Assembly (NCBI GenBank): GCA_000431795.1
Contig: FR887368.1
Span: 90,291 to 154,290 of the forward strand
Direction of reading: 5' to 3'
Length of the DNA stretch: 64,000 nt
From: Clostridium sp. CAG:302
Lineage (GTDB): Bacteria; Bacillota_I; Bacilli_A; RF39; UBA660
A program made the translations under genes and the position numbers. The notes beneath the pieces are model-generated. The model searched no databases, was not told the origin of the DNA, and saw nothing but the letters and a program-made list of their open reading frames with translations. This document shows, piece after piece, positions 3,921 through 62,980 of this stretch; within the stretch, counting starts at the first letter, position 1; each line of letters begins with the position of its first letter.

Positions 3921-4478
3921 TTACTTATCGCCACTCTTTATATCCATGCTTATATGTCCTTTATATACACTAGATAGTATTTCATTTTGATTTTGTTCAG
4001 TAACTAAATTACCATCTAACCATATATATACTGTTATTGTTTTTACTGTAGTGGTTATTGGTATATCTTTATATATTTCTATACTTTCAGCACTTGATAC
4101 TATTCCACTACCAACTGGAGTAGTACCATCTAATACTTGGTATTTTAATAATTTACCACTTAACAATGTACTTGAAGTTACGCTAGTATCGGTATTTAAA
4201 TATAATGTACCAGTACCATTAGTTATAGTACAAGTATCTTTTAAATTAACCTTTATTACTGAAGATAATCCTTCAGTATAAGTACTTGCTAACACAAAAT
4301 TAGCAGGATTACTATCACTACCTATATCTTGTCCTTTAACATAATTAACATCAAAACATTCACTGGTACCTGATATATTTACTACGCCGCTAAAAGTATA
4401 TACTGCATAAGTTACCGCTACTGATAGAATTATGATTACTGAAACTATAATAATACTATATATTACTTTCTTCTTCAT
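3921..4478 (-). CDS. small secreted/anchored protein, SipW-class-like N-terminal signal (paralog of 4480..5037)
   Basis: KKKVIYSIIIVSVIIILSVAVTYAVYTFSG, then SECFDV..., DTCTITNGTG and a C-terminal ITVYIWLDGNLV motif shared with 4480..5037 and 21306..23309. The likely start is the ATG at 4478 behind AGGTGAG; the track start at 4487 is a GTG. Confidence 0.6.
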   Translation of the reverse strand: MKKKVIYSIIIVSVIIILSVAVTYAVYTFSGVVNISGTSECFDVNYVKGQDIGSDSNPANFVLASTYTEGLSSVIKVNLKDTCTITNGTGTLYLNTDTSVTSSTLLSGKLLKYQVLDGTTPVGSGIVSSAESIEIYKDIPITTTVKTITVYIWLDGNLVTEQNQNEILSSVYKGHISMDIKSGDK

Positions 4479-4479
4479 A

Positions 4480-5037
4480 CTAATCACTCACCTGTTCTAC
4501 ACTAGCGGTTATATTACCATAATAACTTGAAAAAGCATCTTCATTTTGTACTAAATCATTACTTATCCATACATATACCGTATAATTATCGGCATCACTT
4601 ATGCTACTTACTTTCTTTAGTGTACCTACATTTATACTTTTAGTACCTGAACTAGTAATATTGCCTTCAGTTAATTTAGTACCATTTTTTAATACTACAT
4701 AATTAAGAAGTCCTGTTCTATATAAATTACTACTTGTGGTATCTAGAGTATTTAATTTGATTATACCAGTACCACTTACATTAGTACAGGTACTGCTAAA
4801 ACCTATTTTAACAGTAGACGATAATCCTCCGGTATAATCATTCGAAGGCATTAATGTAGCAGTATTTTGATCACTACCTATATCTGTTCCTTTAGCATAT
4901 AAAACATTAAAACATTCACTATTACCAGTAGTATTAATCTTTCCACTAGTCCAAGTAATATAAGCAAAAGTAATACCTACTACTGCAATAATAACTATAA
5001 CTACAATTAATATACTTGTAGTAATTTTACTCTTCAT
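4480..5037 (-). CDS. small secreted/anchored protein, SipW-class-like N-terminal signal (paralog of 3921..4478)
   Basis: KSKITTSILIVVIVIIAVVGITFAYITWTSG, SECFNV, STCTNVSGTG, YTVYVWISNDLV. Its stop lies 1 nt before the next gene's ATG. Confidence 0.6.
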   Translation of the reverse strand: MKSKITTSILIVVIVIIAVVGITFAYITWTSGKINTTGNSECFNVLYAKGTDIGSDQNTATLMPSNDYTGGLSSTVKIGFSSTCTNVSGTGIIKLNTLDTTSSNLYRTGLLNYVVLKNGTKLTEGNITSSGTKSINVGTLKKVSSISDADNYTVYVWISNDLVQNEDAFSSYYGNITASVEQVSD

Positions 5038-5091
5038 AATCATCACCATATCCTACATATAAATATTATCATATTTTTATATATAATTCAA

Positions 5092-5121
5092 GAAAAAAAA
5101 AGAAGATTTATTTTTCTTCTT
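5092..5121 (-). terminator. cotE intrinsic terminator overlapping the stop codon
   Basis: On the minus strand: AAGAAGA-loop-TCTTCTT followed by a long U-run. Confidence 0.65.
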
Positions 5122-5647
5122 TAATATAGTTAGGATCAACATTATCATCTATTTCTTTCATAGTATCATCAGTTACATCTTCTGGTATTTCATCCCATGG
5201 TTCTTCATCTTCTTCAATAGCAATTTTAACCTTAGTATCACCAACTATCTCAACACCTAATTCTTTTTCAATATCAATAACTATAGTATTATCTTTCTCT
5301 TTAGCGGATATACAACTAGGTTGTTTTAAACTTCTTACTATAATATCTTTACTTGAAGAATCAGTAGTTTCTTTTTGGGCTACTGTTACCATTTCTTTAT
5401 ATGGTATATTTTTAGTTATAACAGATGTCTTAGTATCATTATCATAAGAATACCATAAATTTACATCAAAAGAACCATCTATTTCTATTCTATCATCTAC
5501 TTCTTTACCAGAAAATCTATGATTTATTACCCAACATCCAAGCACAGTATTAGGTTTACTATCAGTATTTATAGTATAGGTATTTCTATAATACTTTTTA
5601 CCTTTACCTACTACTGCTTTTGTTACTATTTCTTTATATGCAGACAA
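5108..5647 (-). CDS. cotE: outer spore coat morphogenetic protein CotE
   Basis: MSAYKEIVTKAVVGKGKKY...GCWVINHRF...DVNLWYSY... plus an acidic C-terminus closely parallels B. subtilis CotE as I remember it (MSEYREIITKAVVAKGRKF...INHKY...INVWYSY...). Confidence 0.85.
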   Translation of the reverse strand: MSAYKEIVTKAVVGKGKKYYRNTYTINTDSKPNTVLGCWVINHRFSGKEVDDRIEIDGSFDVNLWYSYDNDTKTSVITKNIPYKEMVTVAQKETTDSSSKDIIVRSLKQPSCISAKEKDNTIVIDIEKELGVEIVGDTKVKIAIEEDEEPWDEIPEDVTDDTMKEIDDNVDPNYIKEEK

Positions 5648-7219: not shown

Positions 7220-7573
7220 ATGCTAATGAATTATTTAAAAAGTTTTATTTGGTCTTTAGGTATCTTTTTATCAAGTATAATAATACTTACTATTTTTAAT
7301 TATTTTAATATTCTAAATGGAACTATACTTAAAGTATTAGAATTATTTATACCATTAATTTCTATATTTATAGGTAGTTATAAATTAGGAAAAACTTCTA
7401 ATCAAAAGGGATATATTGAAGGATTAAAGTATAGTGGTATATGGATAATAATATTTTTATTATTTAACATAATTACTAAAAATATTACTTTAATAGGAAT
7501 ATTATATTTAATATTAATGATATTAATTGGAGTATTTGCAAGTATTCTAGGTATTAATAAAAGAAGAACATAA
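7220..7573 (+). CDS. small multi-pass membrane protein, unknown function
   Basis: 117 aa with 3-4 hydrophobic helices, followed by a plus-strand terminator. One of only four plus-strand genes. Confidence 0.5.
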   Translation: MLMNYLKSFIWSLGIFLSSIIILTIFNYFNILNGTILKVLELFIPLISIFIGSYKLGKTSNQKGYIEGLKYSGIWIIIFLLFNIITKNITLIGILYLILMILIGVFASILGINKRRT

Positions 7574-7575
7574 TT

Positions 7576-7597
7576 AGTGTGCAAAAGCACACTTTTT
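7576..7597 (+). terminator. intrinsic terminator of 7220..7573
   Basis: AGTGTGC-AAAA-GCACACT followed by TTTTT. Confidence 0.75.
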
Positions 7598-7660: not shown

Positions 7661-8335
7661 CTAAGCAGCAAATGTAGCTGAAACAGTACCACCAGCAGCT
7701 TGGAATGTAACTTTACCAACATAAGAACCAGTTGCTAGGTTATCACCAGGCTCATTTTGAGATGCATCTTTGTTTTCTAAATAAATCATTAAATAGTAAA
7801 CTACATCTGTTCCACCAGTTACACTAGCGCCACTGTGTAAGTCTACAGGAGCAGTATCAAGAACATTAAAACTTCCTGATTTTCCTTCTACTAATGCAGC
7901 AGCATCGCCCTCACCAGTAAATGTTACATATTTCCAAGCAGCTACATCAGTTGCACCTGTTTGTGTTAATGTAAGATTTAATGATGCAGTATTTAATGTT
8001 TGTCCTGATTTAGCAGTTATTTTATAAATATGACATCCTGTATAACCTTTATTTACACATTTAGCAGTCATAGCATTTTTAATATTGGTAATATTTGCAC
8101 CAGCATCTGATGGAACAAGATTATCACTAGCTACAGTTTCATCTTTATATACTCTTACCGCTTCAACAGAGAAACTTTGTTTAATATCCAAAGTACCACC
8201 TTTGATATCCTCAGCTCCAGTACTAGCTTGAGCACTAAAGTATGCAAATGTAGCACCAATTATAGCAACTACTAATGTAGCAACACCTACTACAGCGTAA
8301 AATACGCCAGGTCCCTTTCTGTTATTTTCTTCCAT
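7661..8335 (-). CDS. TasA/CalY (camelysin)-like secreted protein with SipW-class signal peptide, paralog 1
   Basis: VVGVATLVVAIIGATFAYFSAQAST...GGTLDIK parallels the TasA/CalY N-terminus (GGGTFAYFSD...AGTLDL). Shared motifs: KC..GY.GCH.YK and YYLMIYLENKDASQN. Codon usage is biased and it has its own consensus promoter and terminator. Confidence 0.7.
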   Translation of the reverse strand: MEENNRKGPGVFYAVVGVATLVVAIIGATFAYFSAQASTGAEDIKGGTLDIKQSFSVEAVRVYKDETVASDNLVPSDAGANITNIKNAMTAKCVNKGYTGCHIYKITAKSGQTLNTASLNLTLTQTGATDVAAWKYVTFTGEGDAAALVEGKSGSFNVLDTAPVDLHSGASVTGGTDVVYYLMIYLENKDASQNEPGDNLATGSYVGKVTFQAAGGTVSATFAA

Positions 8336-8363
8336 TTTATTTCAATCCTCCTTTACAATAATA

Positions 8364-8392
8364 ATTGTATCAAATATAAATTCTTTTTGCAA
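8364..8392 (-). promoter_or_regulatory. sigma-A promoter of 7661..8335
   Basis: TTGCAA - 17 nt - TACAAT with TG at the extended -10 position. The 36 nt from the -10 box to the RBS are identical to 9241..9276. Confidence 0.7.
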
Positions 8393-8437
8393 TAGTTTTT
8401 TGATATTTTTTTCATTTTCAAAATAATTATTTTTTTA

Positions 8438-8465
8438 AAATAAAAAGGAAGAACGTTTCTTCCTT
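8438..8465 (-). terminator. intrinsic terminator of 8478..9236
   Basis: AAGGAAGAA-ACG-TTCTTCCTT followed by TTTATTTT on the minus strand. Confidence 0.75.
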
Positions 8466-8477
8466 AATAAATAATTT

Positions 8478-9236
8478 TTAATTGCCTACTTTTGCTTCGA
8501 ACTTAGCATATACTTTACCACCAGCAGCATCCATAGTTATTATACCAGAATAGGTACCAGTTCCGCTTTCAGTAGCTGAAGTTTCGTTAGGATTTTGTGA
8601 AACATTTTCTTTATTCTCTAAATAAACCATTAAATAATAGGTAGTATTTCCATTTAAACTTGCATTATTATGCATATCAAATCCACTTGGAGTTCCTGCA
8701 CTATATGTATATACTCTACTAGTAGATTCTGCATCATATGCAGCAAAGCTATGATTTGTATTCTTAGCATCAGAAATTATAGTAACATTACCACTTTCAT
8801 CTAATTTATATAGATAGAATTTCCAGCTAGCATAGTCAGTAGCAGTAGTTTGTAAATCTGCTAATCTAATACTTGCACTTGTAAGTGCCTCTGAAGAACC
8901 TGCTTCAATTTTGTAAACATGGCATCCAACATATCCGCTTGTTCCTATGCACTTATTATCTATAGCATTTTTTATATCAGTTTCATTAGAAATTTCTGCA
9001 GGTACTAAATTATTATAGTTAACAGTTGTACCTTCTTCACTACTTGCTTCAACCAAATCTCTAGTTACATTTAATGACAAAGCAGCACCGACATCACTTG
9101 TGCCACCAGAGATATCGCCATCTTTGGTACTAGCTTGAGCACTAAAGTATGCAAATGTAGCGCCAATTATAGCTACTACTAATGTAGCAACACCTAATAC
9201 TACATAAAGTGTACTTCCTTTCTTATTTTCATTCAT
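8478..9236 (-). CDS. TasA/CalY-like secreted protein with SipW-class signal peptide, paralog 2
   Basis: The 25-aa VVGVATLVVAIIGATFAYFSAQAST core matches paralog 1 except for a single L/V difference at its first residue (LGVAT vs VGVAT). Motifs KCIGTSGYVGCHVYK and YYLMVYLENKENVSQN. The likely start is the ATG at 9236; the track start is a TTG. Confidence 0.7.
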   Translation of the reverse strand: MNENKKGSTLYVVLGVATLVVAIIGATFAYFSAQASTKDGDISGGTSDVGAALSLNVTRDLVEASSEEGTTVNYNNLVPAEISNETDIKNAIDNKCIGTSGYVGCHVYKIEAGSSEALTSASIRLADLQTTATDYASWKFYLYKLDESGNVTIISDAKNTNHSFAAYDAESTSRVYTYSAGTPSGFDMHNNASLNGNTTYYLMVYLENKENVSQNPNETSATESGTGTYSGIITMDAAGGKVYAKFEAKVGN

Positions 9237-9263
9237 CTTTTTCAATCCTCCTTTACAATAATA

Positions 9264-9292
9264 ATTGTATCAAATACCGACTATTTTTGCAA
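9264..9292 (-). promoter_or_regulatory. sigma-A promoter of 8478..9236
   Basis: TTGCAA - 17 nt - TACAAT, the same layout as 8364..8392. Confidence 0.7.
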
Positions 9293-9313
9293 TACTTATT
9301 TCTCATATTTTAG

Positions 9314-9344
9314 AAAAAAATAATAGTGATTTCTCACTATTATT
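9314..9344 (-). terminator. intrinsic terminator of 9352..9981
   Basis: 11-bp stem AATAATAGTGA/TCACTATTATT plus a U-run on the minus strand. Confidence 0.75.
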
Positions 9345-9351
9345 TTAATAA

Positions 9352-9981
9352 TTAGAATTGTGCTTCAAGAGTAGAACCAGTACTTGCAACTACTGTTACT
9401 GTACCTTTATATGTTTTACCAGCATCAGTACCAGTTTGATCAGAACCAGTATTCTTTAAGTATACAACAAAATATAGATCAGCAGTTCCATTTGCACTTA
9501 ATGCAGTTCCTTTTGCTAAAGAATTGTCAGTACCTTTTAATGAACCAAATGTTGTTTGATTAGTCATCTTAGCCCAAGTAACATTTGCAGCTCCTCCAGT
9601 ATTTAATGTAATTGAAGTATCTACTGTAGTGGCTGTACTACCTTCATTACTTAATGTTACCTTATAAACATGACAAACCATATAACCATTCTTATCTACA
9701 CATTTATTGGTACCACTAACTGCAGTAGTTAACTGATTAGTAGTATGGCCTGTTACTGAGCCATCATGTATAGGAATTAAACCTTTTGTTTTATCACCTA
9801 CTACTAGAGTTACTACTGGTTTTTTAATTTGAACGTCAATTGTATTACCAGAGAACTGATCACTTGTTGCTTGTGCAGTAAAGAATGCATAAGCACTACC
9901 AGATACTGCTAGTACTAATAGGGTTACTCCTAATATGGCATAGACTAATGGTCTATTTACTTTTTTCTTTTCTTCTATCAT
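9352..9981 (-). CDS. TasA/CalY-like secreted protein with SipW-class signal peptide, paralog 3
   Basis: LGVTLLVLAVSGSAYAFFTAQATSDQFSGNTIDV, KCVDKNGYMVCHVYK, LYFVVYLKNTGSDQTG. It lies 65 nt downstream of the ATPase-like operon with no intervening hairpin. Confidence 0.7.
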   Translation of the reverse strand: MIEEKKKVNRPLVYAILGVTLLVLAVSGSAYAFFTAQATSDQFSGNTIDVQIKKPVVTLVVGDKTKGLIPIHDGSVTGHTTNQLTTAVSGTNKCVDKNGYMVCHVYKVTLSNEGSTATTVDTSITLNTGGAANVTWAKMTNQTTFGSLKGTDNSLAKGTALSANGTADLYFVVYLKNTGSDQTGTDAGKTYKGTVTVVASTGSTLEAQF

Positions 9982-10007
9982 TTTTTCTTCCTCCTATCAT
10001 CATATTA

Positions 10008-10036
10008 ATTATAGCAAAACTTGATATAATTATCAA
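10008..10036 (-). promoter_or_regulatory. sigma-A promoter in front of 9352..9981
   Basis: TTGATA - 17 nt - TATAAT on the minus strand. Confidence 0.6.
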
Positions 10037-10046
10037 TATGATTTTT

Positions 10047-10883
10047 TTATTTTAGATAATCTTTTCCATCAATATCTATTGGTTTTTCTTCATCTAGACC
10101 TGGAAGTTTTAGATTATCTATTTTAATTTCTTTATATTCTTCTTTTGGAGGTACTACCTCTTTTTTTATTTCTGGAATATTATTTTTATAACTAGTAAAT
10201 GTTTTATTAGTTATAAATAATTTAGTTTTATCTACTTTACTTGGATCATATGAATTAACTATCCAAAATTCATATAATAACTTTAATATACTATCTGTCA
10301 TAACACTATCTTCAATTGAAGATAATTTATCTTTTTCTATTTTAATACTATTTTCTACTACAAATATTTTTTCTAAGATACTATCTTGTTTTTCAATAAT
10401 AATATCTTGTGAATATAAAGTATTATAAGTTTTAGGATATTTATTTTTATCTATTTTACCTTTTAATCTATCTCTTTTAATTACTAATTCACTATAATTA
10501 CTTTGTTTTTCTAGTAGTAGATATAATATATCTTGTACTTCTTTATCTTGATTTTTAATATCTTCATATAATACATTTCTATATTTACCAAAAGTATCTT
10601 CATTAAACTTAGATAAAAGAGTATCTTCAAGTAGTATATTATCTACTTCATATTCATCTTTAATTCTATTTAATTCTTCTAGCTTTTCTTTATCTAGCTT
10701 AACACTTTCTAATACTTTAAAATATCTTTCTTTAGCAGTTAAATATTTTAATATATTATTATATCTTTCTTGATATTCAGGTAATTCATCTACTAAATTA
10801 TTTTCTTTTAAATATTTTATTGTTTTTTCTACTCTTACTTTTTCTTCTTCAATAGTCGCAGTAATATAATCAAATTTATCCAT
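10047..10883 (-). CDS. coiled-coil cytoplasmic protein, last gene of the F1-like ATPase operon
   Basis: 278 aa, Lys/Glu-rich with heptad-like regions and no TM. The start overlaps the gamma-like gene by 8 nt, suggesting translational coupling. Confidence 0.6.
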   Translation of the reverse strand: MDKFDYITATIEEEKVRVEKTIKYLKENNLVDELPEYQERYNNILKYLTAKERYFKVLESVKLDKEKLEELNRIKDEYEVDNILLEDTLLSKFNEDTFGKYRNVLYEDIKNQDKEVQDILYLLLEKQSNYSELVIKRDRLKGKIDKNKYPKTYNTLYSQDIIIEKQDSILEKIFVVENSIKIEKDKLSSIEDSVMTDSILKLLYEFWIVNSYDPSKVDKTKLFITNKTFTSYKNNIPEIKKEVVPPKEEYKEIKIDNLKLPGLDEEKPIDIDGKDYLK

Positions 10884-11661
10884 TGTCAGCCTCCATATAA
10901 GATAATTTCTTATAATTATCTACTGTTTTATTAATTAGAATAGTTTTCTTTTCTTTTCTTAATTCATTACTTTGCTCTTCTTCTATTTGTTCTATTTTAT
11001 CTATTGCTTCTCTGGTTATTTGGTTTCTTATTGTGTTTTCAGCAGCTCTACTGATACATTCACACATTCTAAGTTGATACATTATATAGAAAGTAAGCAG
11101 GCTATAAATCATACTAGTTATATCTGTCTCTATAACAAAGTCTTTATTACTATAATATTCCCCTTCAAATTTTAAAGGAAATAGATTTAATTTTTTGAAT
11201 TCAAAAGATGTACTTGAGTTATAGTGGTTATAATATAAATTAATCTCACTATATGCTGCATTATGTATAGATTCATCTATAGTCTTCTCTATTCTACCAA
11301 GTTCATTATTAAAGTTATCTTTCTCTATTTTTAATAATGTTTTATCATCACTATATACTATTTTTTTACCTATAATTATTTTATAAACATCTTTATCTTG
11401 TCTTATTTGATGGGCTACCTGAGAATTAAAATTACCACAGAATCCATAATCATTAGCTATATATATATTAAGTTTAGGATTATCTGGATTTGGAGTAATT
11501 ATTTTTTTATCTAGAACTAAATTTCTATTATAGAGAATACTTCTTATTATATTAGTTATTTCATCACCAACATTTTGATAATGACTGGCTTCTCTTTTAG
11601 AAGCCTCAATTCTAAGTAAGGAGTGGAAGTTCATTACTTTAACTACGTTTTTTATTCTCAT
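10876..11661 (-). CDS. F1 gamma-like subunit
   Basis: The size and the N- and C-terminal helices (MRIKNVVKVMNFHSLLRIEASKREA...; ...CECISRAAENTIRNQITREAIDKIEQ) resemble the gamma coiled coil (canonical SRM.AM..AT.NA). The ATG at 11661 follows AAGGGTGG; the track start is a GTG. Confidence 0.55.
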   Translation of the reverse strand: MRIKNVVKVMNFHSLLRIEASKREASHYQNVGDEITNIIRSILYNRNLVLDKKIITPNPDNPKLNIYIANDYGFCGNFNSQVAHQIRQDKDVYKIIIGKKIVYSDDKTLLKIEKDNFNNELGRIEKTIDESIHNAAYSEINLYYNHYNSSTSFEFKKLNLFPLKFEGEYYSNKDFVIETDITSMIYSLLTFYIMYQLRMCECISRAAENTIRNQITREAIDKIEQIEEEQSNELRKEKKTILINKTVDNYKKLSYMEADNG

Positions 11662-12166
11662 CCTTACCACCCTTTCTTACATATTTATTTCTAATTACTA
11701 CATTCTTAATATTTTTAAGTAATGTATATGATAAATATAGTAATAAGAATATCATTAAGAATACTAATAGTAATAGCATCCATACAGAGTAATATTCATT
11801 TATAATATAATCATGAATTAAATATACTAATTTAATTCCTCCTAGTGATATTAAATCTAGTAAAAGATTTATTATTACTTTTTTATTTTTTATTAAAAGA
11901 CCACTGATAAGAGTTAATGATAAAGATATTAATGCTATATATAGATTTAAATCTATAAATGAAGCCATTATGTATAGTAAGAAGATATAACTAACAATAC
12001 TACATGATAAACTAATTATCTCAGTATTTTTCATACCTTGTAGTATTCCGTATATATTTACTTTTGATTCTTCTGGATTGAATTTTTTTATTAATATTTT
12101 TAATATTGCATATAAGGATATTAATACTATTAATCCAACACTAGCAAAATATAATACATTCTCCAT
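11639..12166 (-). CDS. polytopic membrane protein of the F1-like ATPase operon (not recognisable as subunit a)
   Basis: 175 aa with about 4-5 hydrophobic helices. No arginine occurs before the C-terminal basic tail. It lies between the epsilon-like and gamma-like genes. Confidence 0.6.
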   Translation of the reverse strand: MENVLYFASVGLIVLISLYAILKILIKKFNPEESKVNIYGILQGMKNTEIISLSCSIVSYIFLLYIMASFIDLNLYIALISLSLTLISGLLIKNKKVIINLLLDLISLGGIKLVYLIHDYIINEYYSVWMLLLLVFLMIFLLLYLSYTLLKNIKNVVIRNKYVRKGGKDENKKRS

Positions 12167-12167
12167 A

Positions 12168-15081
<2,914 letters not shown>

Positions 15082-15098
<17 letters not shown>

Positions 15099-15840
15099 TT
15101 AAACTAAAGTCATATACTTTATTCTTATAAATAATTTTAATTCCTCTATATATATTATCTGATACTTTAGTCTTGATTTTACTATCAATATAATCATAAT
15201 TAATATTTTTATTTGGTACAAGTACAGTAACAGTAGGATTATTAAGTTCAATTAATCTATTTAGATAATCTATAAAATCTACCATATTAAACTTATTACT
15301 TATCACAAATATTTCATATACTTTGTATTCTTCATCAGTTAATAATTCTTTTAAATACTTATCTCTCTCTTCAGGCAATAAAGTTTCTATCTTATATATT
15401 TCGTCAGGTGTAAATTTATTTCTAAGTTTAAGAGTAAAGTCATATTTATTATTATCTTTAATATTTGATAAAAAATCTTTAAGTAAATCTTCATAATTAA
15501 TTATAAATTTTTCTTCTATTTTTTTATTTAATTCAAATATATTCTTATCAAGATAATTTGTTTCAGTAAGCATATCAATAATACTACTATCAAAATCATA
15601 GTTAGGATTATTGATATCACCATTACCATCTTTTAATCCATTCTTTCTTTTTTCTAATTCGCTTTCTAATTCAGAAAGTTTCTTTTCTTTTTCATCTATT
15701 AGGTAATCATACTCTTGTAGTTTATCTACAAAGTATGATTTAGATTTTTTATCTACTTCTTTTACAGCATTCTTAAGTATTAAGCTCATTAATACTACAA
15801 GTAGTATAATAACAGCAAAAGAGATAATAAATAAAGTCAT
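15082..15840 (-). CDS. subunit b-like stalk protein (N-terminal TM helix plus long coiled coil)
   Basis: MTLFIISFAVIILLVVLMSLIL followed by charged helical sequence. Its position between the c-like and alpha-like genes mirrors b/delta. No delta/OSCP similarity is visible by eye. Confidence 0.5.
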
Positions 15841-15841
15841 A

Positions 15842-16832
<991 letters not shown>

Positions 16833-16941: not shown

Positions 16942-18132
16942 TTATTTGCAATTTTTTTCTTCTATATTTGTCTTTTTACTCCAACCTATTCCACCAGGAC
17001 AATTTTCACTTGGACTACCTGGTCTCCATAAATACTTATCTGATGATGGGCAATAATAACAAGAATATTCATCTTTTGAATAACAACGTGAATACCCATT
17101 TTCCAATTGATCGATACAATCACCAGTAGCATTTTCTAAACAATCAGTAAAGTTAACGCCTTCTGTTAAATTACCTAAATTTATCATTAAAACTTCTACT
17201 ATCCAAGGAACTGCGAAGACAAGTACTGCGAAAACGATTCTTTTTACTAATAGTTTCATGTTTTTCTTTTGTACTCCATCATCACTAGTAACAATAGATT
17301 TTGAAAAGTCTATCATTCCCATAATTATTAATCCTATTGGAATAACAATTTTTACTATATCTACAATTAATCTACCAAAATATATGACTCTAAGTATATC
17401 TGGATTAGTACAAGCATCTACTATTGTTGTATTTCCTTTAGTACTAGTGCTACTACTACTTCCACTATTACCACCTTCATTAGGTGTTGGTGAAGGCTTT
17501 GTTTTTCCATTACATACTGTACTGGAAGTTGTGTCATAAGATGATTTTTCATATTTTTTTGCTAGTTTTTTATAATAATCTGATGTTGTATCAGAAAGTT
17601 TACTTCCAAATACATTAGTATTACTTAAAGAACTTCCCTCATAACCGAAATAAGTGTCTTCATAGCCAGGATTTTCTATATAGAACCATACTGTTCCATA
17701 TTTATTAACTATACTTTTTGATGCTTGTAATGTCATATTTTTGGGTAAATTATATTTACCAGTTAAAACAAGTTCTGCTATATAAAGCATTTCACTTTGT
17801 TTACTTTGAGCAACTTCACTACTAAAACTATTGTTTTTATATTCACTATATCCTTGATAATTTCCATCAGTCAAGTTCATTAACTTTTCATACGTAGTAC
17901 TACCTTTTTTGTTGTAAGCATTATTTAATACTATGCTTGCAGTCGTTAATCTTTGAAAAAAGTTATCATCTTTATTTTTAGCGGTATCAGCTCCAACTTC
18001 ATGATATATAATTTTTGCTAATTGCTCTGCTGTTTTTGTATCGCATTCTACTGCTAGTACATCATTCGATTTTGTAAATAAAAGTGTTAGTGATATGATA
18101 CAAAGTAGTAGCAATTTAATTTTTTTATTCAT
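16942..18132 (-). CDS. secreted composite protein: SleB/CwlJ-like cell-wall hydrolase-like N-domain, Ser/Thr/Gly linker, two TM helices, Cys-rich C-terminus
   Basis: Signal peptide ending VLA. AEQLAKIIYHEVGADTAKN...ASIVLNNAY resembles the Hydrolase_2 family. SSSSTSTKGNTT linker. TM pair IVIPIGLIIMGMIDF / IVFAVLVFAVPWIVEVLMI. The C-terminal ~70 aa carry several cysteines (about eight by eye). Confidence 0.45.
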   Translation of the reverse strand: MNKKIKLLLLCIISLTLLFTKSNDVLAVECDTKTAEQLAKIIYHEVGADTAKNKDDNFFQRLTTASIVLNNAYNKKGSTTYEKLMNLTDGNYQGYSEYKNNSFSSEVAQSKQSEMLYIAELVLTGKYNLPKNMTLQASKSIVNKYGTVWFYIENPGYEDTYFGYEGSSLSNTNVFGSKLSDTTSDYYKKLAKKYEKSSYDTTSSTVCNGKTKPSPTPNEGGNSGSSSSTSTKGNTTIVDACTNPDILRVIYFGRLIVDIVKIVIPIGLIIMGMIDFSKSIVTSDDGVQKKNMKLLVKRIVFAVLVFAVPWIVEVLMINLGNLTEGVNFTDCLENATGDCIDQLENGYSRCYSKDEYSCYYCPSSDKYLWRPGSPSENCPGGIGWSKKTNIEEKNCK

Positions 18133-18244: not shown

Positions 18245-18988
18245 TTAAAAATAGTAAATATTATATTTAATAAACAATAATTCACAATAATAAAACCAAG
18301 TTAATTGGTCAGCCAGTGGTTGACCTTTTTCGATTAATAGGTAAAACATTCTCATATACTTAAGTGTAGTTACTGAATATCTATTACCTAATTCTTTTAA
18401 AAATGATGGTATATCCTCAAGTATCAATCTTTGCAATATTTTTTCTGTTATAGATTCTTTATCTATGTTGTATTTATTTCTTATTACTATAGGATTTTTT
18501 ATAAAATCACTTACTACTGTTTCTTCTTTATTTATTAACTTTAATTTAGTATTATCATCTAGTCTTTGATACTCTTTAGACTTTATTTTTTCTCTTAACT
18601 TTCTAACACTTAAATTATAAATTTCAGTTTGCTTTATGTAATAGTTAATTTCATCAATATTATCAAATGTCAAAAGTTCTCTATAATGACTCCATGTCAA
18701 TTGGTGCCACAGTGTGGCACCTTTTTCAATAATTAAATAAAATTGTCTCATTCTTTTTAATGTAGTTATATTATATTTTCCTCCCAATTCCTCACTTAAT
18801 TTTTTTGAGTATTCTTTTATTAAGCCGTCACCATATTTAGCTCTTTCTTCACCATCTTGGGCTTCAATTAGCAATTTACCAACATTATAATAAGTACTTA
18901 GTTCATTTTTATTCTTTGAATAATCTTTTACACTTTTGTATACTTCATTATTTATTAGTTCGTTTTTTATTTCTTTATAATAATTCAT
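18245..18988 (-). pseudogene. rearranged DUF1016 (YhcG-like) gene lacking the PDDEXK nuclease domain
   Basis: The N-terminal DUF1016_N-like region (KYNITTLKRMRQFYLIIEKGATLWHQLTWSHYRELL) is partly repeated at the C-terminus (RYSVTTLKYMRMFYLLIEKGQPLADQLTWFYYCELL), directly after FLKELG, where the nuclease core normally starts. The likely ATG is at 18988. Confidence 0.5.
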
Positions 18989-19030
18989 TTCTGTGCCTCC
19001 ATAAATACACACTAGCAGGTTCTAATATAT

Positions 19031-21305: not shown

Positions 21306-23309
21306 TTAAGATACTTTTAAAGTATATGGATTACTTTCAGAACCATCACCAGAATTTATTTTTAATTCCGGCTTTAAATAAAGGGTAGGCAAAATACCAA
21401 AGGTATTGTTAGCATTATTTGCATAATATATATATCCACTTAAGTTCCAAGGATAAGTTTCAGAATCAGAATAAGAACCAATGTTTAAAAACCAAAAATT
21501 ATCTACTTTTTGACTTAGCCAGTTATTATTTTTTTGACATGACATATCTATATATATATCTTCAGGTGCTGAACTTAAGAAATCATTAGAGTATAAATAA
21601 TCTGATACAGTTGGTAATGCTATTTTTCCAGACCAAGTTTTAGTTATTTCGCTAGAGTATGCAGCATTAGAAAATATGTTTCTTGAACTATAATAAGTTC
21701 CTATATTCCATTTTACACTAGTTATCATATTTCTTGTAGTTTCATTTTTTATTTTAAAATTTAATTCGTTTCCATTATAATAATTTTCATTCAGTATTTT
21801 TTGTAACGTTGATGTCGACCAAGCTGCAATGCCATTACTATCCCATGCTAGTTCACCAATTGTGCTGTTTCTAATTATTTTTAATTTACCATCAAACACT
21901 CCTATTATTCGCCATATTTCACATGTATTTGATGACGGATTGGAATAATTATTACAATTGAAATATATGTAGTTGTTTACATTACCCGGCTCTGTTGAAC
22001 TCACTTCTCTAGAGCAAAGGTATTGTTTTACACCATCAACTGATGTTGTTTCACCATTAGTTATTTGACTTATAATATTAGGTAGACCTGTTTCACATTC
22101 TGCCACACTAGAAAAGCCTAAACTGGCATAGGAAGACGTACAATTTGTGGCTTGAGAAAGTGTAGTTATACAATTTTCTTTAGAGGAAATTGCTTGGTTT
22201 GAAATGAAAAGATTTTGGCTTATTTGATAAAATATCATTGCCGTGTTATAACTATTCCATGCATATGCCTTTTGTTCGGAATTAGAAGTAATACCATAAA
22301 ATCTAATATTACCTCCATTTAGGTCTGATGTTGTTCCACCTAATCTATCATTCATAAGTCTTACTGAAGGTGCTGTATTATAAGTAATGTCATTGCTTAT
22401 TACAGTTGTTTTTGGAGCATTATTATATAAATCAGTTATATATGTTGCAGCGGTTTCAATAGTTATTTTTCCTGAAGTAAAGCCATCTTCTGATATTATT
22501 TTCAACGTGTGATATCCAGGTGATAATTTTTCCAAATAACTTTCTTTAAATGTTACTATTGTTGAACCTTCGGTTATTGTATAGTTAGAGCTGTCTACAA
22601 CTGTATCATCTACCCTTACCTCTCTAAATTTACTTAGAGGAGCTGTAGACCTAACTGCTTTTGTTCCTGAACCTGTATAGGTTGGTGTATATGTAGTACC
22701 ATCACCATTTGTTAACTGATATGTATCTGTTGGTACTATCTTAGTACTTGTACCTGTTATGTTACAGTTTAAATCAAAGTTATATGGTTGATTAGTCATA
22801 TCTAATGGATTATTACCTATAGTACCATCTATCCATAGATATAATATAAATGTGTATTCTTTATTATAATCTAATGTTTCTTTATCTGTACTTAGTGTTA
22901 TTGTAGTACCATTAGTTACATTTTCAAAACTACCTGTACCATAAGATACTCCTGTTGTGTCATTTACTAATTCATATTTAAATGATTTATGTTTTAATCC
23001 TGAAGTAGTAAGTGTTGTTTCATTTATACTATTTACTACTAAATTCCAAGTAACAAAAGCATTTGTAGCCATTTGTTGTTTAGTAGTTACTTTTAATATT
23101 CTTCCCTTTTCTCTTGTGGATGTTGGATATAATAATTTATTGTTGTCTGATAGTTTATCACACGAACCAGTACCACCTGCGACTGTTACATCTACTAACT
23201 GATCTTTGTTTTCTGCAGAGCTGCTCCAACCAAAGTATGCCATTGTTGATCCTACTAGAATAAACATAACTATTGCAATAATTAATAAAATAATATTCTT
23301 TTTTTTCAT
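21306..23309 (-). CDS. large secreted protein with SipW-class-like signal, N-domain paralogous to 3921..5037, and a C-terminal DUF6273-like region
   Basis: ILVGSTMAYFGWSSSAEN, GSCDKL, FKYELVNDTTGVSYGTG, YTFILYLWIDGTIGNNP (compare ITVYIWLDGNLV). The C-terminal CEIWRIIGVFDGKLKIIRNS...WSTSTLQKILNENYYN resembles DUF6273-type domains. Confidence 0.6.
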   Translation of the reverse strand: MKKKNIILLIIAIVMFILVGSTMAYFGWSSSAENKDQLVDVTVAGGTGSCDKLSDNNKLLYPTSTREKGRILKVTTKQQMATNAFVTWNLVVNSINETTLTTSGLKHKSFKYELVNDTTGVSYGTGSFENVTNGTTITLSTDKETLDYNKEYTFILYLWIDGTIGNNPLDMTNQPYNFDLNCNITGTSTKIVPTDTYQLTNGDGTTYTPTYTGSGTKAVRSTAPLSKFREVRVDDTVVDSSNYTITEGSTIVTFKESYLEKLSPGYHTLKIISEDGFTSGKITIETAATYITDLYNNAPKTTVISNDITYNTAPSVRLMNDRLGGTTSDLNGGNIRFYGITSNSEQKAYAWNSYNTAMIFYQISQNLFISNQAISSKENCITTLSQATNCTSSYASLGFSSVAECETGLPNIISQITNGETTSVDGVKQYLCSREVSSTEPGNVNNYIYFNCNNYSNPSSNTCEIWRIIGVFDGKLKIIRNSTIGELAWDSNGIAAWSTSTLQKILNENYYNGNELNFKIKNETTRNMITSVKWNIGTYYSSRNIFSNAAYSSEITKTWSGKIALPTVSDYLYSNDFLSSAPEDIYIDMSCQKNNNWLSQKVDNFWFLNIGSYSDSETYPWNLSGYIYYANNANNTFGILPTLYLKPELKINSGDGSESNPYTLKVS

Positions 23310-34988: not shown

Positions 34989-37175
34989 TTAGTCATCACT
35001 GAAGAAATCATCAAAGAAATCATCATCATTTGTATTATCTTCATACATATTTTGTAATTTATCTTCATTAGTATTATTTTCTTTAGGTGTAGATGTAGGT
35101 ATATTCTGATTACTTTGAGTTAAATCATTAAATGATACATTCTCTTTTTCAGTAGACTGAGTAACTGGTTCTGAAACTACATCTACTGGTTTTTGAACTT
35201 GTTCTGGTTCTTTTGTTTGTTCTTCTTCTTTTTCTATTTCTGCTATTTTAGCATCAATCTTCTTAACTAAGTCATCTATATTAAAACTATCTTCTTCAGG
35301 TTCACTTTGTCCTTGATTACCTAAGAAGGCAGGCATACCTCCACTAAATGGATTAGATGATGAGGCCACAAATGGATTGGAACTACCGAATGGACTACCA
35401 CCCATAAATGGATTTGAAGAACTAATAAATGGATTCGACATGTTTGGACTAAACTCTCCCATTGAAGCCATTTTTTCTTGTTTTTTGGCTTTAACAAATT
35501 CTCTTATATCAAATAATTGTAATTCTCTCTTTGGTCTAGCTTCTGGAGTGCTCTTTGGGTATGTTCTACCCCAGTCAACTTGGAAGTCTGTTTGAAACTT
35601 TGTTTTGTATGGAAACATTCTTCTTCTTAAAACAATTATTTCAAACTGGCTTAATCTTTGTAAGTCACTTACAGTTACTAATGGTGTTGATGCGGTTTTA
35701 TCTTTTTCTTTTGACTTTACTTCACCACACATTTTGCTTATTTCTTCAAGGGCCGCTATCTCACTACTTATTAAATATAGTAAATTACAGTTACCACGAA
35801 TAGTATCTCCGTTTTCTTTACCATATACTTGTGTTAATTGTGCGAAGTTCTGGATAATAAATGTAAATCTGATTAATCTACTTCTTGCGGCAGTAACCAT
35901 GGTTGTAACATCTTTTAAAGGCGGCATATTAGCAAACTCATCTAGAATGAAGTTTGTTCTATATGGTAATTTTCCACCACTTTCTTGAGCAACATCTATT
36001 AATGTTTCATAACACTGTTTAATAAATATAGTAGCAAGTGGATGTAATGTTTTCTTTTCATCTTGCACTATTAAGAAAACTGCTGTTTTCTTTTTTCCAA
36101 TATCGCGCATATCAAAATCACTATATGATAACATTTCTGATAAGTTTTCTCTTGATGAGAAAAGTTTTATTTTTTGTTTAAATGTTGCAATAATACCTTG
36201 CTTTGTTTCATCTGCAGTAAATACTGTACCTGATGCATTAATATAAGCTGGTTTAGAAGGATCTTTACCATTAAAGTATTCTTTTATGTAGTTATTGTTT
36301 GGTCCTCCAAATCTTTCTTCGCCTAAACTACTCATTAAGTTTATACTATTTAAGTTTACTTGTTCTGGAGTAGCATCTTCAAATAAACCTAAAGCAAGTC
36401 CTGTAAAATAGTCTGCTGCTGTTTTTCCCCAGAATGGATCACCACTACTTTTTTCTTCATATAGTATATTTAAGGCCAAATCATCAAGTAATTCTATGGC
36501 TTTATCTGTATTACCATCTTTATATAATTGATAAGGTAAGCTCATTGGATTCCATGCATTGCCATGTTGTGGATCCCTAAAATTTAATGTTATAATGTTA
36601 TATCCTTCATCTTTTAATAATGCTGCTGTTTCTTCATACAATTCACCTTTAGGGTCAGTTAGTATCATTGATTCATTATGTTTGGCTAATAATTTAATCA
36701 TTGGTTTTGCTACGATTACTGTTTTACCAGAACCAGTAGCACCCATAACTAACCAGTGATCTTCACCATTATCTACCCACATTTTACCTTTTTTACTATA
36801 AAGTGCTATACCTGCTGCAGGTATTGTTTGATCTTTTATATTAACTACTTCAAGGCCTTTTTTAAATTCGGCATCTGTAGCCCATCTTGAATATCCTTTT
36901 TCTTTCTTTGAACCAACACTTAGTCCAAATCCTTTTTCATGGTCAAAAATATATGATTTAACTGCAAGAAAAATTCCAACCAAACAAACTATGAATAAAA
37001 ATAAAGTCATTCCTATGTATTTAGAAGTAAATGCTTTAAAAGGTAAAAAGCCATAAAATTTACTATTTGATGCTAAACTACTTACATTTAATACTCCTAT
37101 TGCACATAGATATAATAAAAATACACAAAAAATTATAAATATTATTAAATCTTTTTTTTCTACTTTAATTTTCAT
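34989..37175 (-). CDS. VirD4/TraG-type type IV coupling protein with a low-complexity SNPF-repeat and acidic C-terminus
   Basis: Two N-terminal TM helices, Walker A VMGATGSGKTV, TDPKGELYEE, LDEFANM. The C-terminus has at least four SNPF motifs within ~40 aa and ends DDFFDDFFSDD. Confidence 0.75.
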   Translation of the reverse strand: MKIKVEKKDLIIFIIFCVFLLYLCAIGVLNVSSLASNSKFYGFLPFKAFTSKYIGMTLFLFIVCLVGIFLAVKSYIFDHEKGFGLSVGSKKEKGYSRWATDAEFKKGLEVVNIKDQTIPAAGIALYSKKGKMWVDNGEDHWLVMGATGSGKTVIVAKPMIKLLAKHNESMILTDPKGELYEETAALLKDEGYNIITLNFRDPQHGNAWNPMSLPYQLYKDGNTDKAIELLDDLALNILYEEKSSGDPFWGKTAADYFTGLALGLFEDATPEQVNLNSINLMSSLGEERFGGPNNNYIKEYFNGKDPSKPAYINASGTVFTADETKQGIIATFKQKIKLFSSRENLSEMLSYSDFDMRDIGKKKTAVFLIVQDEKKTLHPLATIFIKQCYETLIDVAQESGGKLPYRTNFILDEFANMPPLKDVTTMVTAARSRLIRFTFIIQNFAQLTQVYGKENGDTIRGNCNLLYLISSEIAALEEISKMCGEVKSKEKDKTASTPLVTVSDLQRLSQFEIIVLRRRMFPYKTKFQTDFQVDWGRTYPKSTPEARPKRELQLFDIREFVKAKKQEKMASMGEFSPNMSNPFISSSNPFMGGSPFGSSNPFVASSSNPFSGGMPAFLGNQGQSEPEEDSFNIDDLVKKIDAKIAEIEKEEEQTKEPEQVQKPVDVVSEPVTQSTEKENVSFNDLTQSNQNIPTSTPKENNTNEDKLQNMYEDNTNDDDFFDDFFSDD

Positions 37176-37286
37176 ATAAAAATCTTTCCTTCCAATTAAC
37201 TACCAATATTATAGCATTAATAATTTGAATTGTAAATAAGTTTATTGGAAAAGAAAAGGCATTCTTGTTAGAGTGCCTTTTAACTA

Positions 37287-38468
37287 TTATATAGTTTCTT
37301 TTCTACTTTTGAAATAGTATACTGAGTATGTTAATGCTCCAATACCTGCAGTCCAAGCGATGAATATTAATATATCACCTGTTTTACTATTTTTATCTAC
37401 ATCTTCATTAGTTTTATCGCCTATTTTACTCCAGTAAGCATATAAACTAATATCTGATGTTACTTCTTTAGTAAAGTCATATTCTTTTCCATTTTCTTTT
37501 TTGTCATACCATCCATCAAATGTATAACCTTCTCTCGTTGGATCTTCAGGTTTTACTACTTTATCACCTTTATTAACCACTTTAGTACTTTTTTCAGTTG
37601 TACCATCGTTTGTATAGAAAGTTATTGTATACTTTGTTTCTTCTTCATTTAATTCTTTTTCGTATTGAGCATATAATGTAACACTTGCTTCTGTTGTATA
37701 TTTAGATCCAGCATTATACGAAGTTCCTGTTCCGTCTTTTTTTGTATTCCAATTTACAAATTTATAACCTTCTTTTGTTGGCACAGTTGTACTTAATACC
37801 AATTCTTTACCTTTTGTCTTAGTTTGATTAGATGGTGCTCCAGTACCACCATTAGCATCATATTTTACTGTATATGTAATAGTATTTTCTTTATATTGAG
37901 CATATAAAGTAACATCACTATCTGTTGTATATGAAGCACCTATATCATACTTTGTTCCTGTTCCATCTTTCTTTGTATTCCAACTTGTAAATGTATAACC
38001 TGTTTTAGTAGGTTTTGCAGTACTAATAGTTAAAGATTCTCCTTGTTTTTTTGTTTGATTACTAGGTGCGCCAGTTCCTCCATTAGCATCATATTTTACT
38101 GTGTAAGTAGTAGGTGTTGGGTTTTCTCCTCCACCAGTTTCTCCGCCTGAAGAACTACAATTCCAATTTGCATAAAAACTTTGATTACCATTAGTTCCAA
38201 AATATTGTCTGTAAACTGTTCCTGTAGGACTACCATCATGCCATCCATCTGCAGTACATCCTGACTTAGTTAATGTTGGTATCCCCATTTGGCTATAATA
38301 GTTTGTTGCACCGCTATAAATTGTTTTAGACCATGTTGTTGAACCATCACTGAATGTTCCACCATTAGCATAGAATGTTGCCGTATAAGTAGTTGTTGTT
38401 GGAGCTACGCAATTTGCAGCTGATGTAATTGTACTTGATTTATACCAACTACCTGAAGAACAAGATGT
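37287..38468 (-). pseudogene. 5'-truncated surface protein with Listeria-Bacteroides (Flg_new) repeats and a C-terminal membrane anchor
   Basis: Three YTVKYDANGGTGAPSNQTK...GY.F..W repeats. The frame is open with no possible start from 38468 to the first ATG at 38288, and there is no signal peptide. The upstream boundary coincides with repeat copy D. Confidence 0.6.
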
Positions 38469-38556
38469 TCAAGTACCATAGCGGGGGAAAATATAACTAT
38501 TTTTTTTATATCTCTGTAAAACCTTTATTTATAAGTGTTTATAAGATTTTTATATA
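38467..38556 (-). repeat. ~90-bp repeat, copy D (homologous to 27590..27679)
   Basis: See copy C. In D the position of the TTGACT box is occupied by CCCCCGC. Confidence 0.7.
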
Positions 38557-38687
38557 CAATACAAATGTATGTTAATATAATTGTACTAAAAAAATAATGG
38601 CTTAAATAACCATTATTTTAAACATAGCAATATATTAATTATTAATAATTAACTTTTTTATATCTAAATAGTTAAAAGAAAATAACT

Positions 38688-40076: not shown

Positions 40077-40098
40077 ATCATCACCCCTTCCTTTTTTA

Positions 40099-40725
40099 TT
40101 ATATTAATTCTGCTATATATATAGTTTGATGATAATTATCACCATTGGTACAAGTAATTAAAGTTAAACTTGTTTTATTTCTATTTCTTAATATTCTTAC
40201 TATACCTGTCTTTTTTTCATTGTATATTTTAGTTATCTTATATATATAATCTTTTCCCTGATAATGAACTGTTACAGTATCATCTATACTTAGTTTATAT
40301 AAATCATTAAAATAACTATTGCTATAATTACCTGAATGTCCGGCAATTATTAAATTACCATTTACTACATCAGGATAATCTGACTCTTTTAAAACAAACA
40401 AATTAAATTGAACATTATTTAAACTTGATGTTTTACTATAAAAGCCTTTATAAAAGTTTATCTTTGGAATATCTAATACTCCTAAATATTCTTCATAAAT
40501 ATAATTATTATTATCTTCTTTTACTTCTTCAGTAGGTTCTTCTACTGCTGGTTCTTCTTCAACATTTTCTATATCTCTAGTATTTATCTCTGATAAAACT
40601 AAATTCATTTCGCTAAATACAACATCCCTTTTTTCTTTTATATAGTTTGAAAGTAAAAGCGGGATTCCGCTTATTATTAGTATTACTCCCGCTGCTACTT
40701 GAAATTTTAAATTATTTTTCTTCAT
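40099..40725 (-). CDS. sortase (transpeptidase) with N-terminal membrane anchor
   Basis: IIAGHSGN, TLITC catalytic cysteine motif, and a downstream conserved basic region. The start overlaps the adhesin gene end by 14 nt. Confidence 0.8.
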   Translation of the reverse strand: MKKNNLKFQVAAGVILIISGIPLLLSNYIKEKRDVVFSEMNLVLSEINTRDIENVEEEPAVEEPTEEVKEDNNNYIYEEYLGVLDIPKINFYKGFYSKTSSLNNVQFNLFVLKESDYPDVVNGNLIIAGHSGNYSNSYFNDLYKLSIDDTVTVHYQGKDYIYKITKIYNEKKTGIVRILRNRNKTSLTLITCTNGDNYHQTIYIAELI

Positions 40726-42404: not shown

Positions 42405-42481
42405 TGGCGTCCTCGGACAGAATCGAACTGTCGACCTATTGCTTAGGAGGCAATCGCTCTATCCTACTGAGCTACGAGGAC
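42405..42481 (-). tRNA. tRNA-Arg (anticodon CCT), CCA encoded
   Basis: I folded it by hand: acceptor GTCCTCG/CGAGGAC, D arm GCTC/GAGC, anticodon arm ATTGC-CTCCTAA-GCAAT, T arm GACAG-TTCGATT-CTGTC, discriminator G, CCA. 77 nt. Confidence 0.9.
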
Positions 42482-62276: not shown

Positions 62277-62297
62277 AAAGAGCCTAGGCTCTTTTTT
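62276..62297. terminator. bidirectional terminator between mgtC and sigE
   Basis: Palindrome AAAGAGCCTAGGCTCTTT flanked by A and T runs. Confidence 0.7.
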
Positions 62298-62976: not shown

Positions 62977-62980
62977 ATTA

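Follow-up and report, generated by a model that had tools for sequence, protein, structure and literature searches.

Tandem genes for exported proteins with TasA-type N-termini adjoin an F1-like ATPase operon in uncultured gut Bacilli

In a 64,000-nucleotide stretch of contig FR887368.1 from Clostridium sp. CAG:302 (hereafter the window), three paralogous genes lie head to tail on the minus strand behind an operon encoding an F1-like ATPase, paralog 3 being the first gene past the operon. An original prediction had described them as three tandem TasA/CalY-like genes coupled to that operon. We consider, with a probability of about 55%, that the proteins of this family are hypervariable, SipW-processed surface or fibre subunits working with a new kind of F1-like motor. 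The paralogs and their regulatory sites are listed below (ORF, open reading frame; HMM, hidden Markov model; aa, amino acids).

7661-8335, minus: paralog 1, 224 aa, as in the ORF list
8478-9236, minus: paralog 2, 252 aa from the ATG at 9236; the ORF list extends it to the TTG at 9245
9352-9981, minus: paralog 3, 209 aa; family HMM E 2e-44; the most divergent of the three
8364..8392, minus: promoter-like site of paralog 1, TTGCAA-17-TACAAT, extended -10 (TG)
9264..9292, minus: promoter-like site of paralog 2, TTGCAA-17-TACAAT, extended -10 (TG), the same boxes as for paralog 1
10008..10036, minus: promoter-like site of paralog 3, TTGATA-17-TATAAT, 11/12 matches, extended -10
7576..7593, minus: terminator-like hairpin after paralog 1, from the terminator scan; palindromic, also called on the plus strand
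8445..8465, minus: terminator-like hairpin after paralog 2, from the terminator scan
9314..9341, minus: AT-rich hairpin and T run after paralog 3, seen by eye; the scan gave no call

Paralog 1 is 49% identical to paralog 2 and 32% identical to paralog 3. All motifs attributed to the three proteins in the original prediction were found in the alignment: a hydrophobic N-terminus followed by (A/S)(T/A)(F/Y)A(Y/F)F(S/T)AQA and G(G/N)T.D(I/V), and, in the body, KC..GY.(G)CH.YK and Y(Y/F)(L/V)(M/V)(I/V)YL(E/K)N. The start of paralog 2 is most likely the ATG at 9236, located 10 nucleotides after an AGGAGG, rather than the TTG at 9245. A near-consensus promoter was detected by scanning in front of each gene. 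The expected terminators were also present, the one after paralog 3 being recognised by eye only, at about 9341-9314, as AATAGTGA-GAAA-TCACTATT followed by a T run. The hairpin after paralog 1 is palindromic and called on both strands, and may therefore also end the convergent gene at 7220-7573. Between 10047, where the last operon gene stops, and 9981, no terminator-like site was found by the scan on the minus strand, in agreement with the absence of a hairpin noted earlier; transcriptional read-through from the operon into paralog 3 appears possible. A 16-nucleotide perfect palindrome, TTGATAATTATATCAA, at 10021-10036 (minus strand) encloses the -35 box of the paralog 3 promoter and may be a candidate operator site.

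An uninterrupted stretch of 37 nucleotides, running from the -10 region across the ribosome-binding site, is identical in paralogs 1 and 2; this identity had been pointed out before, with a length of 36. As had also been proposed, their signal regions are nearly identical, with the same 23-residue core GVATLVVAIIGATFAYFSAQAST. Codons were identical for 21 of 25 identical residues in the 5' segment versus 38 of 78 in the body, a pattern that indicates a local gene conversion tract extending from the -35 box to about codon 42 in this pair. Across the family, the fraction of identical codons in the signal region was 0.61 within loci and 0.52 between loci, no different from the body, and family-wide concerted evolution of the signal region was rejected on these grounds. 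Conservation of the signal region would thus reflect mainly purifying selection, with conversion restricted to the paralog 1/2 pair; the earlier suggestion of selection or conversion holds on both counts. The biased codons invoked as a sign of strong expression were not borne out: the T-ending fraction at fourfold sites was 0.48-0.56 in the paralogs, within the range of the other window genes (0.26-0.67), and codon bias was dismissed as an indication of high expression.

The upstream operon has the gene order that we refer to as type A.

10047..10883, minus: last operon gene, 278-aa coiled-coil protein, no transmembrane segment, no family match
10876..11670, minus: gamma-like subunit, 264 aa; PF00231 E 1.8e-21; TIGR01146 45.8 bits against a cut-off of 194
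11639..12166, minus: membrane protein with about 5 hydrophobic segments, 175 aa; system-specific, no Pfam domain
12168..12416, minus: protein in the epsilon position, 82 aa; no family match
12404..13774, minus: beta-like catalytic subunit, 456 aa; PF00006; Walker A motif, GERSREG and EELSEED loop retained
13752..15098, minus: alpha-like subunit, 448 aa; PF00006; shortened C-terminus
15082..15840, minus: candidate b-like stalk (inferred), 252 aa; N-terminal transmembrane segment and coiled coil
15842..16087, minus: c-like subunit, 81 aa; PF00137 E 5e-8; lacks the carboxylate of the second transmembrane segment (TM2)
16098..16832, minus: single-pass membrane protein with external domain, 244 aa; first conserved gene of the type-A operon
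16942..18132, minus: signal-peptide protein with transmembrane segments and a Cys-rich tail, 396 aa; precedes the operon in roughly half of the type-A loci

No operon protein matched ATP-synt_A or OSCP, the families of the a and delta subunits, and none of the 222 relatives of the 175-aa membrane protein carries a name. The features needed for ion pumping are lost from the c-like subunit. Serine, alanine or threonine occupies the carboxylate position in 24 of 24 distinct orthologues and TM2 is devoid of acidic residues, whereas the cytoplasmic RNPE loop is retained; in this alignment with reference AtpE sequences, the RQPE/RNPE loop set the register. Because TM2 of the orthologues lacks an acidic residue, a ring of this subunit is predicted to be unable to carry ions in the usual manner. 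The beta-like subunit fell narrowly under the atpD cut-off (459.2 versus 462.85 bits), and the alpha-like subunit scored under the NCBIfam equivalog cut-offs (372.5 versus 484.45 and 420.4 versus 554). Scores of the alpha- and beta-like proteins were likewise under the cut-offs for the mycoplasma MSC_0618/0619 and MMOB1660/1670 models (score/cut-off 414.7/570, 313.4/520, 371.6/850 and 373.1/600). With these scores, no a subunit and no carboxylate in its c-like subunit, the ATPase differs both from an ordinary ATP synthase and from the mycoplasma Type 2 and Type 3 enzymes.

The family to which the paralogs belong is large. Paralog 1 has 1,169 relatives at E <= 1e-3 in a collection of 5.8 billion proteins, none of which carries a Pfam domain or a name, and a profile built from 64 members recovered 1,574 representative clusters at 50% identity. 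In a collection of species-representative genomes, the carriers were nearly all metagenome-assembled genomes (MAGs) recovered from the guts of humans and animals and recorded as uncultured Bacilli, 'Tenericutes', 'Firmicutes CAG' or Clostridiales; a few bins were labelled Muribaculaceae, Paludibacteraceae, Oribacterium or Methanobacteriaceae. The carriers probably belong to reduced-genome orders related to mollicutes. A phage or plasmid origin was rejected, tblastn having found no relatives in either the phage or the plasmid collection. Family genes form tandem arrays of 1 to 14 copies. The longest, at locus L018 (5794-16774), is an uninterrupted array of 14 genes, the first ten of which are alternating pairs encoding proteins of about 245 and 239 aa.

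The conservation profile, computed from 158 representatives with mutual identity below 70%, was dominated by the N-terminal 40 residues: the helix and the following G-A-T-F-A-Y-F-x-A reached 2.5-3.2 bits per position, whereas the body averaged about 1 bit except at a Cys pair and the last strands. The N-terminal module also occurs apart from the family body. At locus L061 (17142-19016, plus strand) it heads a fusion with DUF285 ('Mycoplasma protein of unknown function') repeats, and in the window a 667-aa protein (21306-23309, minus strand) starts with a hydrophobic helix and GSTMAYFGW resembling it, the remainder having no Pfam or NCBIfam match. Because the module is fused to a DUF285 protein and a variant of it heads the 667-aa protein, it may act as a general export signal in these lineages. 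The family HMM found no members in the window beyond the three paralogs. Two overlapping tandem genes next to cotE (3921-4487 and 4480-5049, minus strand; 188 and 189 aa) each encode an N-terminal hydrophobic helix, T(Y/F)A and a shared SECF(D/N)V.Y.KG.DIGSD motif; their matches to the family HMM were insignificant (E 0.015 and 1.8), and one of the two weakly matched the TafE fimbrial adapter model (E 0.0075).

The claim of a SipW-cognate, TasA/CalY-type N-terminus was upheld by three kinds of evidence. The first is a set of consistent, sub-threshold profile matches. PF12389 matched only the N-terminal ~55 residues of paralogs 1 and 3, at 16.2 and 18.4 bits against a gathering score of 22.5; it did not match paralog 2. 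Across the family, 27 of 64 members matched it at E below 1, with a best E of 1.3e-4. TIGR04088 gave 15.4 bits for paralog 1 and 16.7 bits for paralog 2 (cut-off 19) and no match for paralog 3. The family proteins fall outside PF12389 by its own criteria. Second, we gathered the TasA family with a B. subtilis sequence (99% match to a TasA entry), aligned 35 members and compared them with the family by hhalign. This gave a probability of 8.7% and an E of 0.0038, with family residues 1-77 aligned to TasA residues 1-64 only; the two signals were paired with each other, as were TFAYF with TWAAF, GTLD with GTLD and NLVPxD with NLKPGD. The predicted similarity to the TasA/camelysin profiles therefore stood for the first ~80 residues, without reaching the PF12389 or TIGR04088 thresholds, and past family residue ~80 no similarity to TasA was detectable by profile. 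The T-(F/W)-A-x-F box and its spacing to GT.D agree with those of TasA and CalY.

The third kind of evidence, the genomic context in relatives, is the strongest support for kinship with TasA and SipW. In six related lineages a gene for a SipW-type (archaeal/ER-type) signal peptidase lies right after or inside a family array (loci L023, L069, L062, L014/L015, L016 and L063). These peptidases matched TIGR02228 with 94.7-96.9 bits (cut-off 51.85), and their other leading match was the Bacillus SipW model. At L014/L015 (5804-6943) and L063 (13324-14499) the peptidase carries a long extension at its N-terminus, rich in hydrophobic segments, which brings the whole protein to 379-391 aa. We conclude that the signal and N-terminal module of the family are of the TasA/SipW kind; homology of the body to TasA is no more than plausible. 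A camelysin-type metalloprotease was rejected as an identity, as the proteins lack a metal-binding motif and the profile similarity is limited to the signal region.

Paralog 1 begins with a predicted SipW-type signal spanning residues 1-31 (window 8335-8243). A flexible stretch follows, from residue 32 to about residue 50, and then a beta-sandwich body in which C93 and C101 are the conserved Cys pair. The AlphaFold2 (AF2) model of the full-length protein had predicted local distance difference test (pLDDT) values above 90 for residues 50-224 and below 50 for residues 1-47; a model of the mature protein alone had a mean pLDDT of 90.6. Mature TasA starts at residue 28 after cleavage, and its residues 28-38 serve as the fibre's donor strand (PMC9674648). 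The first ~20 mature residues of paralog 1, their counterpart, were disordered in both AF2 monomer models. Foldseek placed the TasA fibre structure 8aur_A at rank 5 for the full-length model (TM-score 0.34) and at rank 13 for the mature model. The predicted fold is a beta-sandwich, and for the mature model 8aur_A had the highest TM-score among the top 50 matches; this score was only 0.42, amid generic beta-sandwiches, a weak similarity to the TasA fold.

Linkage to the ATPase operon is a conserved feature of many other genomes. When loci were collected by the family, the operon adjoined the array on the same strand in about 38 of 76 species-level loci. A converse scan compared metagenome contigs with an alignment of 18 gamma-like proteins, with no selection for the family, and was evaluated at the 38 loci where the contig continued for 3.5 kb or more downstream. 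A family gene was present within 3.5 kb downstream on the same strand in 37 of these 38 ATPase-anchored loci, usually about 0.9 kb from the gamma gene and straight after the coiled-coil gene. The sole exception, L086, lacks family genes because its contig breaks off inside the last operon gene, departing from the window sequence 46 nucleotides into it. Next to the type A arrangement there is a type B, in which a ~600-aa coiled-coil protein takes the place of the 278-aa protein and membrane proteins of 1,850, 470 and 244 aa are added; Pfam scans of these four proteins gave nothing useful. Type B arrays lie downstream of the operon in some loci and upstream in others. In L035, a 1.46-Mb MAG chromosome (CP091726.1), the entire ATPase operon appears as fragmented ORFs, from either long-read frameshift errors or decay of the operon.

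The family genes turn over while the motor beside them stays constant. At loci L095, L042 and L052, identity to the window is 96-99% for the ATPase subunits but only 33-36% for the best family matches; in a further strain, L090, the motor proteins are 99-100% identical and paralog 2 only 46%, so that cassettes are swapped at both the species and the strain level. Replacement of a cassette beside a frozen machine is an established pattern for exposed surface structures under phage or immune pressure, and we infer that the family proteins are exposed, abundant surface structures of this sort.

Taken together, these data are consistent with the following model. The family would consist of unnamed, lineage-restricted, small (~210-260 aa) exported beta-sandwich proteins, each expressed from its own strong promoter. 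The signal, made of a positive start, a ~21-residue hydrophobic helix and the T-(F/W)-A cleavage box, would receive a SipW-type cut, probably after A31. This would release a flexible N-terminal segment, the counterpart of the TasA donor strand, followed by a disulfide-stabilised sandwich with a fast-evolving surface. Outside the cell the mature proteins would act as abundant, antigenically variable fibre or coat subunits that polymerise or coat via the N-terminal segment. In the partner motor, the alpha, beta and gamma subunits and the small protein in the epsilon position would sit on an ion-blind c-like ring lacking an a subunit, together with the b-like stalk, the 5-TM protein and the single-pass proteins with external domains. 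ATP hydrolysis could then be converted into mechanical work across the membrane for export, assembly, anchoring, remodelling or movement of the family proteins, much as F1-like ATPases of Type 2 and Type 3 do for the gliding legs and MIB-MIP proteins of mycoplasmas. In this model cleavage and polymerisation, as well as any physical or energetic coupling between the family and the ATPase, are what we propose. That the enzyme represents a fourth type of F1-like rotary ATPase, whose ion-blind c-ring and accessory proteins do mechanical work on TasA-type subunits, is a possible outcome that we advance tentatively.

Several observations weigh against a surface fibre driven by a motor. The homology to TasA is weak and confined to the N-terminus, as the hhalign probability above illustrates; TasA was absent from the matches of a profile search of PDB sequences, its TM-score to the models stayed below 0.5, and no sipW was found in the 64-kb window. 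TasA fibres assemble outside the cell and need no energy, and the ATPase is therefore not obviously required. The remaining points bear on the linkage itself, and would suit an explanation in which the family genes are independent, highly expressed surface cassettes inherited beside a conserved operon whose ATPase has an unrelated role. Each paralog gene has its own promoter-like site and terminator-like hairpin. In about 19 loci family arrays have no ATPase within 10 kb, for example in the interval between polC and aspS, two genes identified by reading their N-terminal sequences; some MAGs hold both an operon-linked array and an array elsewhere. The carriers all come from one group of related lineages, and because the carrier genomes are related, the synteny may in part be just inherited. 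Other flanking genes recur in several loci too: superoxide dismutase, a two-component system, DUF1016 and radical SAM genes. We nevertheless regard mere neighbourhood as unlikely. The adjacency is kept in two operon arrangements, with type B arrays on either side of the operon, and it persists down to ~60% identity of the gamma subunits. It also outlasts complete replacement of the cassette, although the outer flanks differ, and is present in all but one of the 38 ATPase-anchored loci.

The superoxide dismutase gene and the response-regulator/histidine-kinase pair follow the arrays in about 14-16 species-level loci (for instance L001 13445-16140 and L004 10738-13421); they are not in the window.

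More improbable still is a pilin-like system, in which the uncleaved helix would serve as membrane anchor or filament core and the motor would extract or rotate subunits in the manner of type IV pilus or archaellum machines. The N-terminal helix is indeed the most conserved part of the family, with invariant small residues every 3-4 positions (Y13, G17, L21, A24, G27, A31) and a nearly invariant G8 in front of it, and in the PDB the profile marginally matched 8fk7 (E 0.52), an archaeal filament protein entered as 'Flagellin', at its N-terminal helix. However, TasA-family signals are conserved to a similar degree, G17, L20, G24, T25 and A27 being invariant in their alignment, and SipW-type peptidase genes lie beside the arrays in relatives. 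There is no G/F..E prepilin motif, paralog 3 lacks G8, and the AF2 model of the segment is not a helix. Type IV pilins proper were rejected, as a prepilin-peptidase site (G, then F/M, with E at +5) was found in none of the three paralogs.

A role as spore-coat or exosporium proteins is, in our view, very doubtful. TasA was first described as spore coat-associated protein N, some sources apply this name to TasA relatives, and the window contains cotE at 5108-5647, about 2 kb from the paralogs, as well as genes at 62296-63721 read by eye as sigE and spoIIGA. Yet cotE is not a conserved neighbour in related loci, the promoters are of the sigma-70 rather than the sporulation sigma type, and strain-level cassette replacement fits exposure on the vegetative surface. 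Least probable of all, to the point that we set it aside, is that the operon encodes a divergent housekeeping ATP synthase of the organism, with the family genes as unrelated cargo: the beta-like subunit all but reaches the atpD cut-off with its catalytic motifs kept, and c-like, b-like and gamma-like genes are present, but the operon lacks a and delta subunits, all c-like orthologues miss the essential carboxylate, and there are additional system-specific membrane and coiled-coil genes without a known family.

Set against known systems, the locus combines variants of two themes, secreted proteins of the TasA/SipW type and F1-like X0 ATPases that have surface proteins as clients. With TasA and CalY the family shares the N-terminal hydrophobic helix, T-(F/W)-A box, G-T-L-D strand and N-L-x-P-x-D motif, a small beta-sandwich body, the flexible segment at the place of the TasA donor strand, the tandem paralogs and, in some carriers, the adjacent SipW-type peptidase. 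It differs in staying below both profile thresholds, with nothing detectable after residue ~80 and a TM-score of 0.42, and in its conserved Cys pair; no tapA-like gene was recognised, and sipW is missing from the window. To our knowledge, a location behind an ATPase operon is not known for tasA or calY.

The closest parallel on the motor side is the mycoplasma Type 3 F1-like X0 ATPase, which is linked, both genetically and in function, to its surface-protein neighbours MIB and MIP, is required for their function and co-purifies with both (PMC12994834). Similarly to that system (PMC12994834; PMC3369863), the operon described here encodes an extra F1-like alpha/beta/gamma/epsilon set on a non-canonical membrane sector, adjoins tandem paralogous surface-protein genes, some of them scattered elsewhere, and is carried by reduced-genome, host-associated relatives of the Bacilli. 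The off-operon arrays resemble the MIB and MIP genes, which lie partly scattered away from the Type 3 ATPase cluster (PMC12994834). Unlike the Type 3 cluster, which has seven genes, a 12-TM protein and no b- or c-like genes (PMC12994834), the operon has 9-10 genes, keeps c-like and b-like subunits and encodes a 5-TM protein; its alpha and beta subunits score under the MSC_0618/0619 cut-offs, and its partners are TasA-type rather than MIB/MIP. The Type 2 (G1) ATPase of Mycoplasma mobile is comparable in that an F1-like ATPase is thought to drive surface proteins mechanically, having been proposed as the driver of the gliding legs (PMC12994834). The scores under the MMOB1660/1670 cut-offs, the absence of an N-terminal dimerisation domain from the beta subunit and the absence of Gli proteins set the present operon apart, and motility would be pure speculation for it.

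Two donor-strand systems offer further comparisons. In candidate phyla radiation (CPR) bacteria, the Sec-exported pilin operon of the Pam pili is consistently co-localised with ATP synthase genes (bioRxiv 10.64898/2026.03.03.709456). The Pam neighbours are, however, ordinary ATP synthase subunits, a linkage taken as metabolic coupling, in an unrelated phylum, and the Pam pilins are two-domain proteins with membrane-anchored chaperones. The subunits of archaeal bundling pili (AbpA), beta-sandwiches distantly like TasA, assemble into filaments through donor strands and need no dedicated pilus motor; these pili are archaeal and have no ATPase linkage. A literature search returned no paper linking an F1-like ATPase to TasA, and for F1-like or atypical F-type ATPases in RF39/Bacilli it returned mycoplasma work only.

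There is a substantial chance that the family proteins and the ATPase together form a new type of machine. If so, they would add a new class to the known cell-surface machines, possibly an evolutionary intermediate on the way to the gliding and MIB-MIP motors of mycoplasmas, placing a related idea of motor and surface protein, with another parts list and another client family, in common uncultured Bacilli of human and animal guts. A motor that retains a recognisable c-ring and stalk might help to explain how the mycoplasma motors are coupled. The large dark family is a candidate, and likely a main, strain-variable surface antigen of these gut bacteria, which would make it relevant to studies of phages, immunity and colonisation, and the TasA/SipW theme would reach far beyond Bacillus.

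The window has a G+C content of about 25% and is nearly identical to contig CAKOLH010000001.1, from an uncultured gut Bacilli MAG of a Hadza sample. Because it contains cotE and the genes read as sigE and spoIIGA, its host appears to be a spore-former. An Rfam scan of the window found a single tRNA and no other RNA element. Upstream of the ATPase operon, a DUF1016 gene (18245-19012, minus strand) has two partial matches to the N-terminal domain, lacks the YhcG nuclease domain and has probably degenerated; other loci repeatedly have intact DUF1016/YhcG genes close to their family arrays. A run of surface- or transfer-type genes, read by eye at 34989-42271 (minus strand) and ending near the tRNA at 42408-42481, may be an integrated element. 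It encodes a 728-aa protein with the Walker A motif GATGSGKT, resembling a conjugative coupling protein, together with a repeat-rich wall protein, a sortase-like gene product and a 519-aa pilin-like protein.

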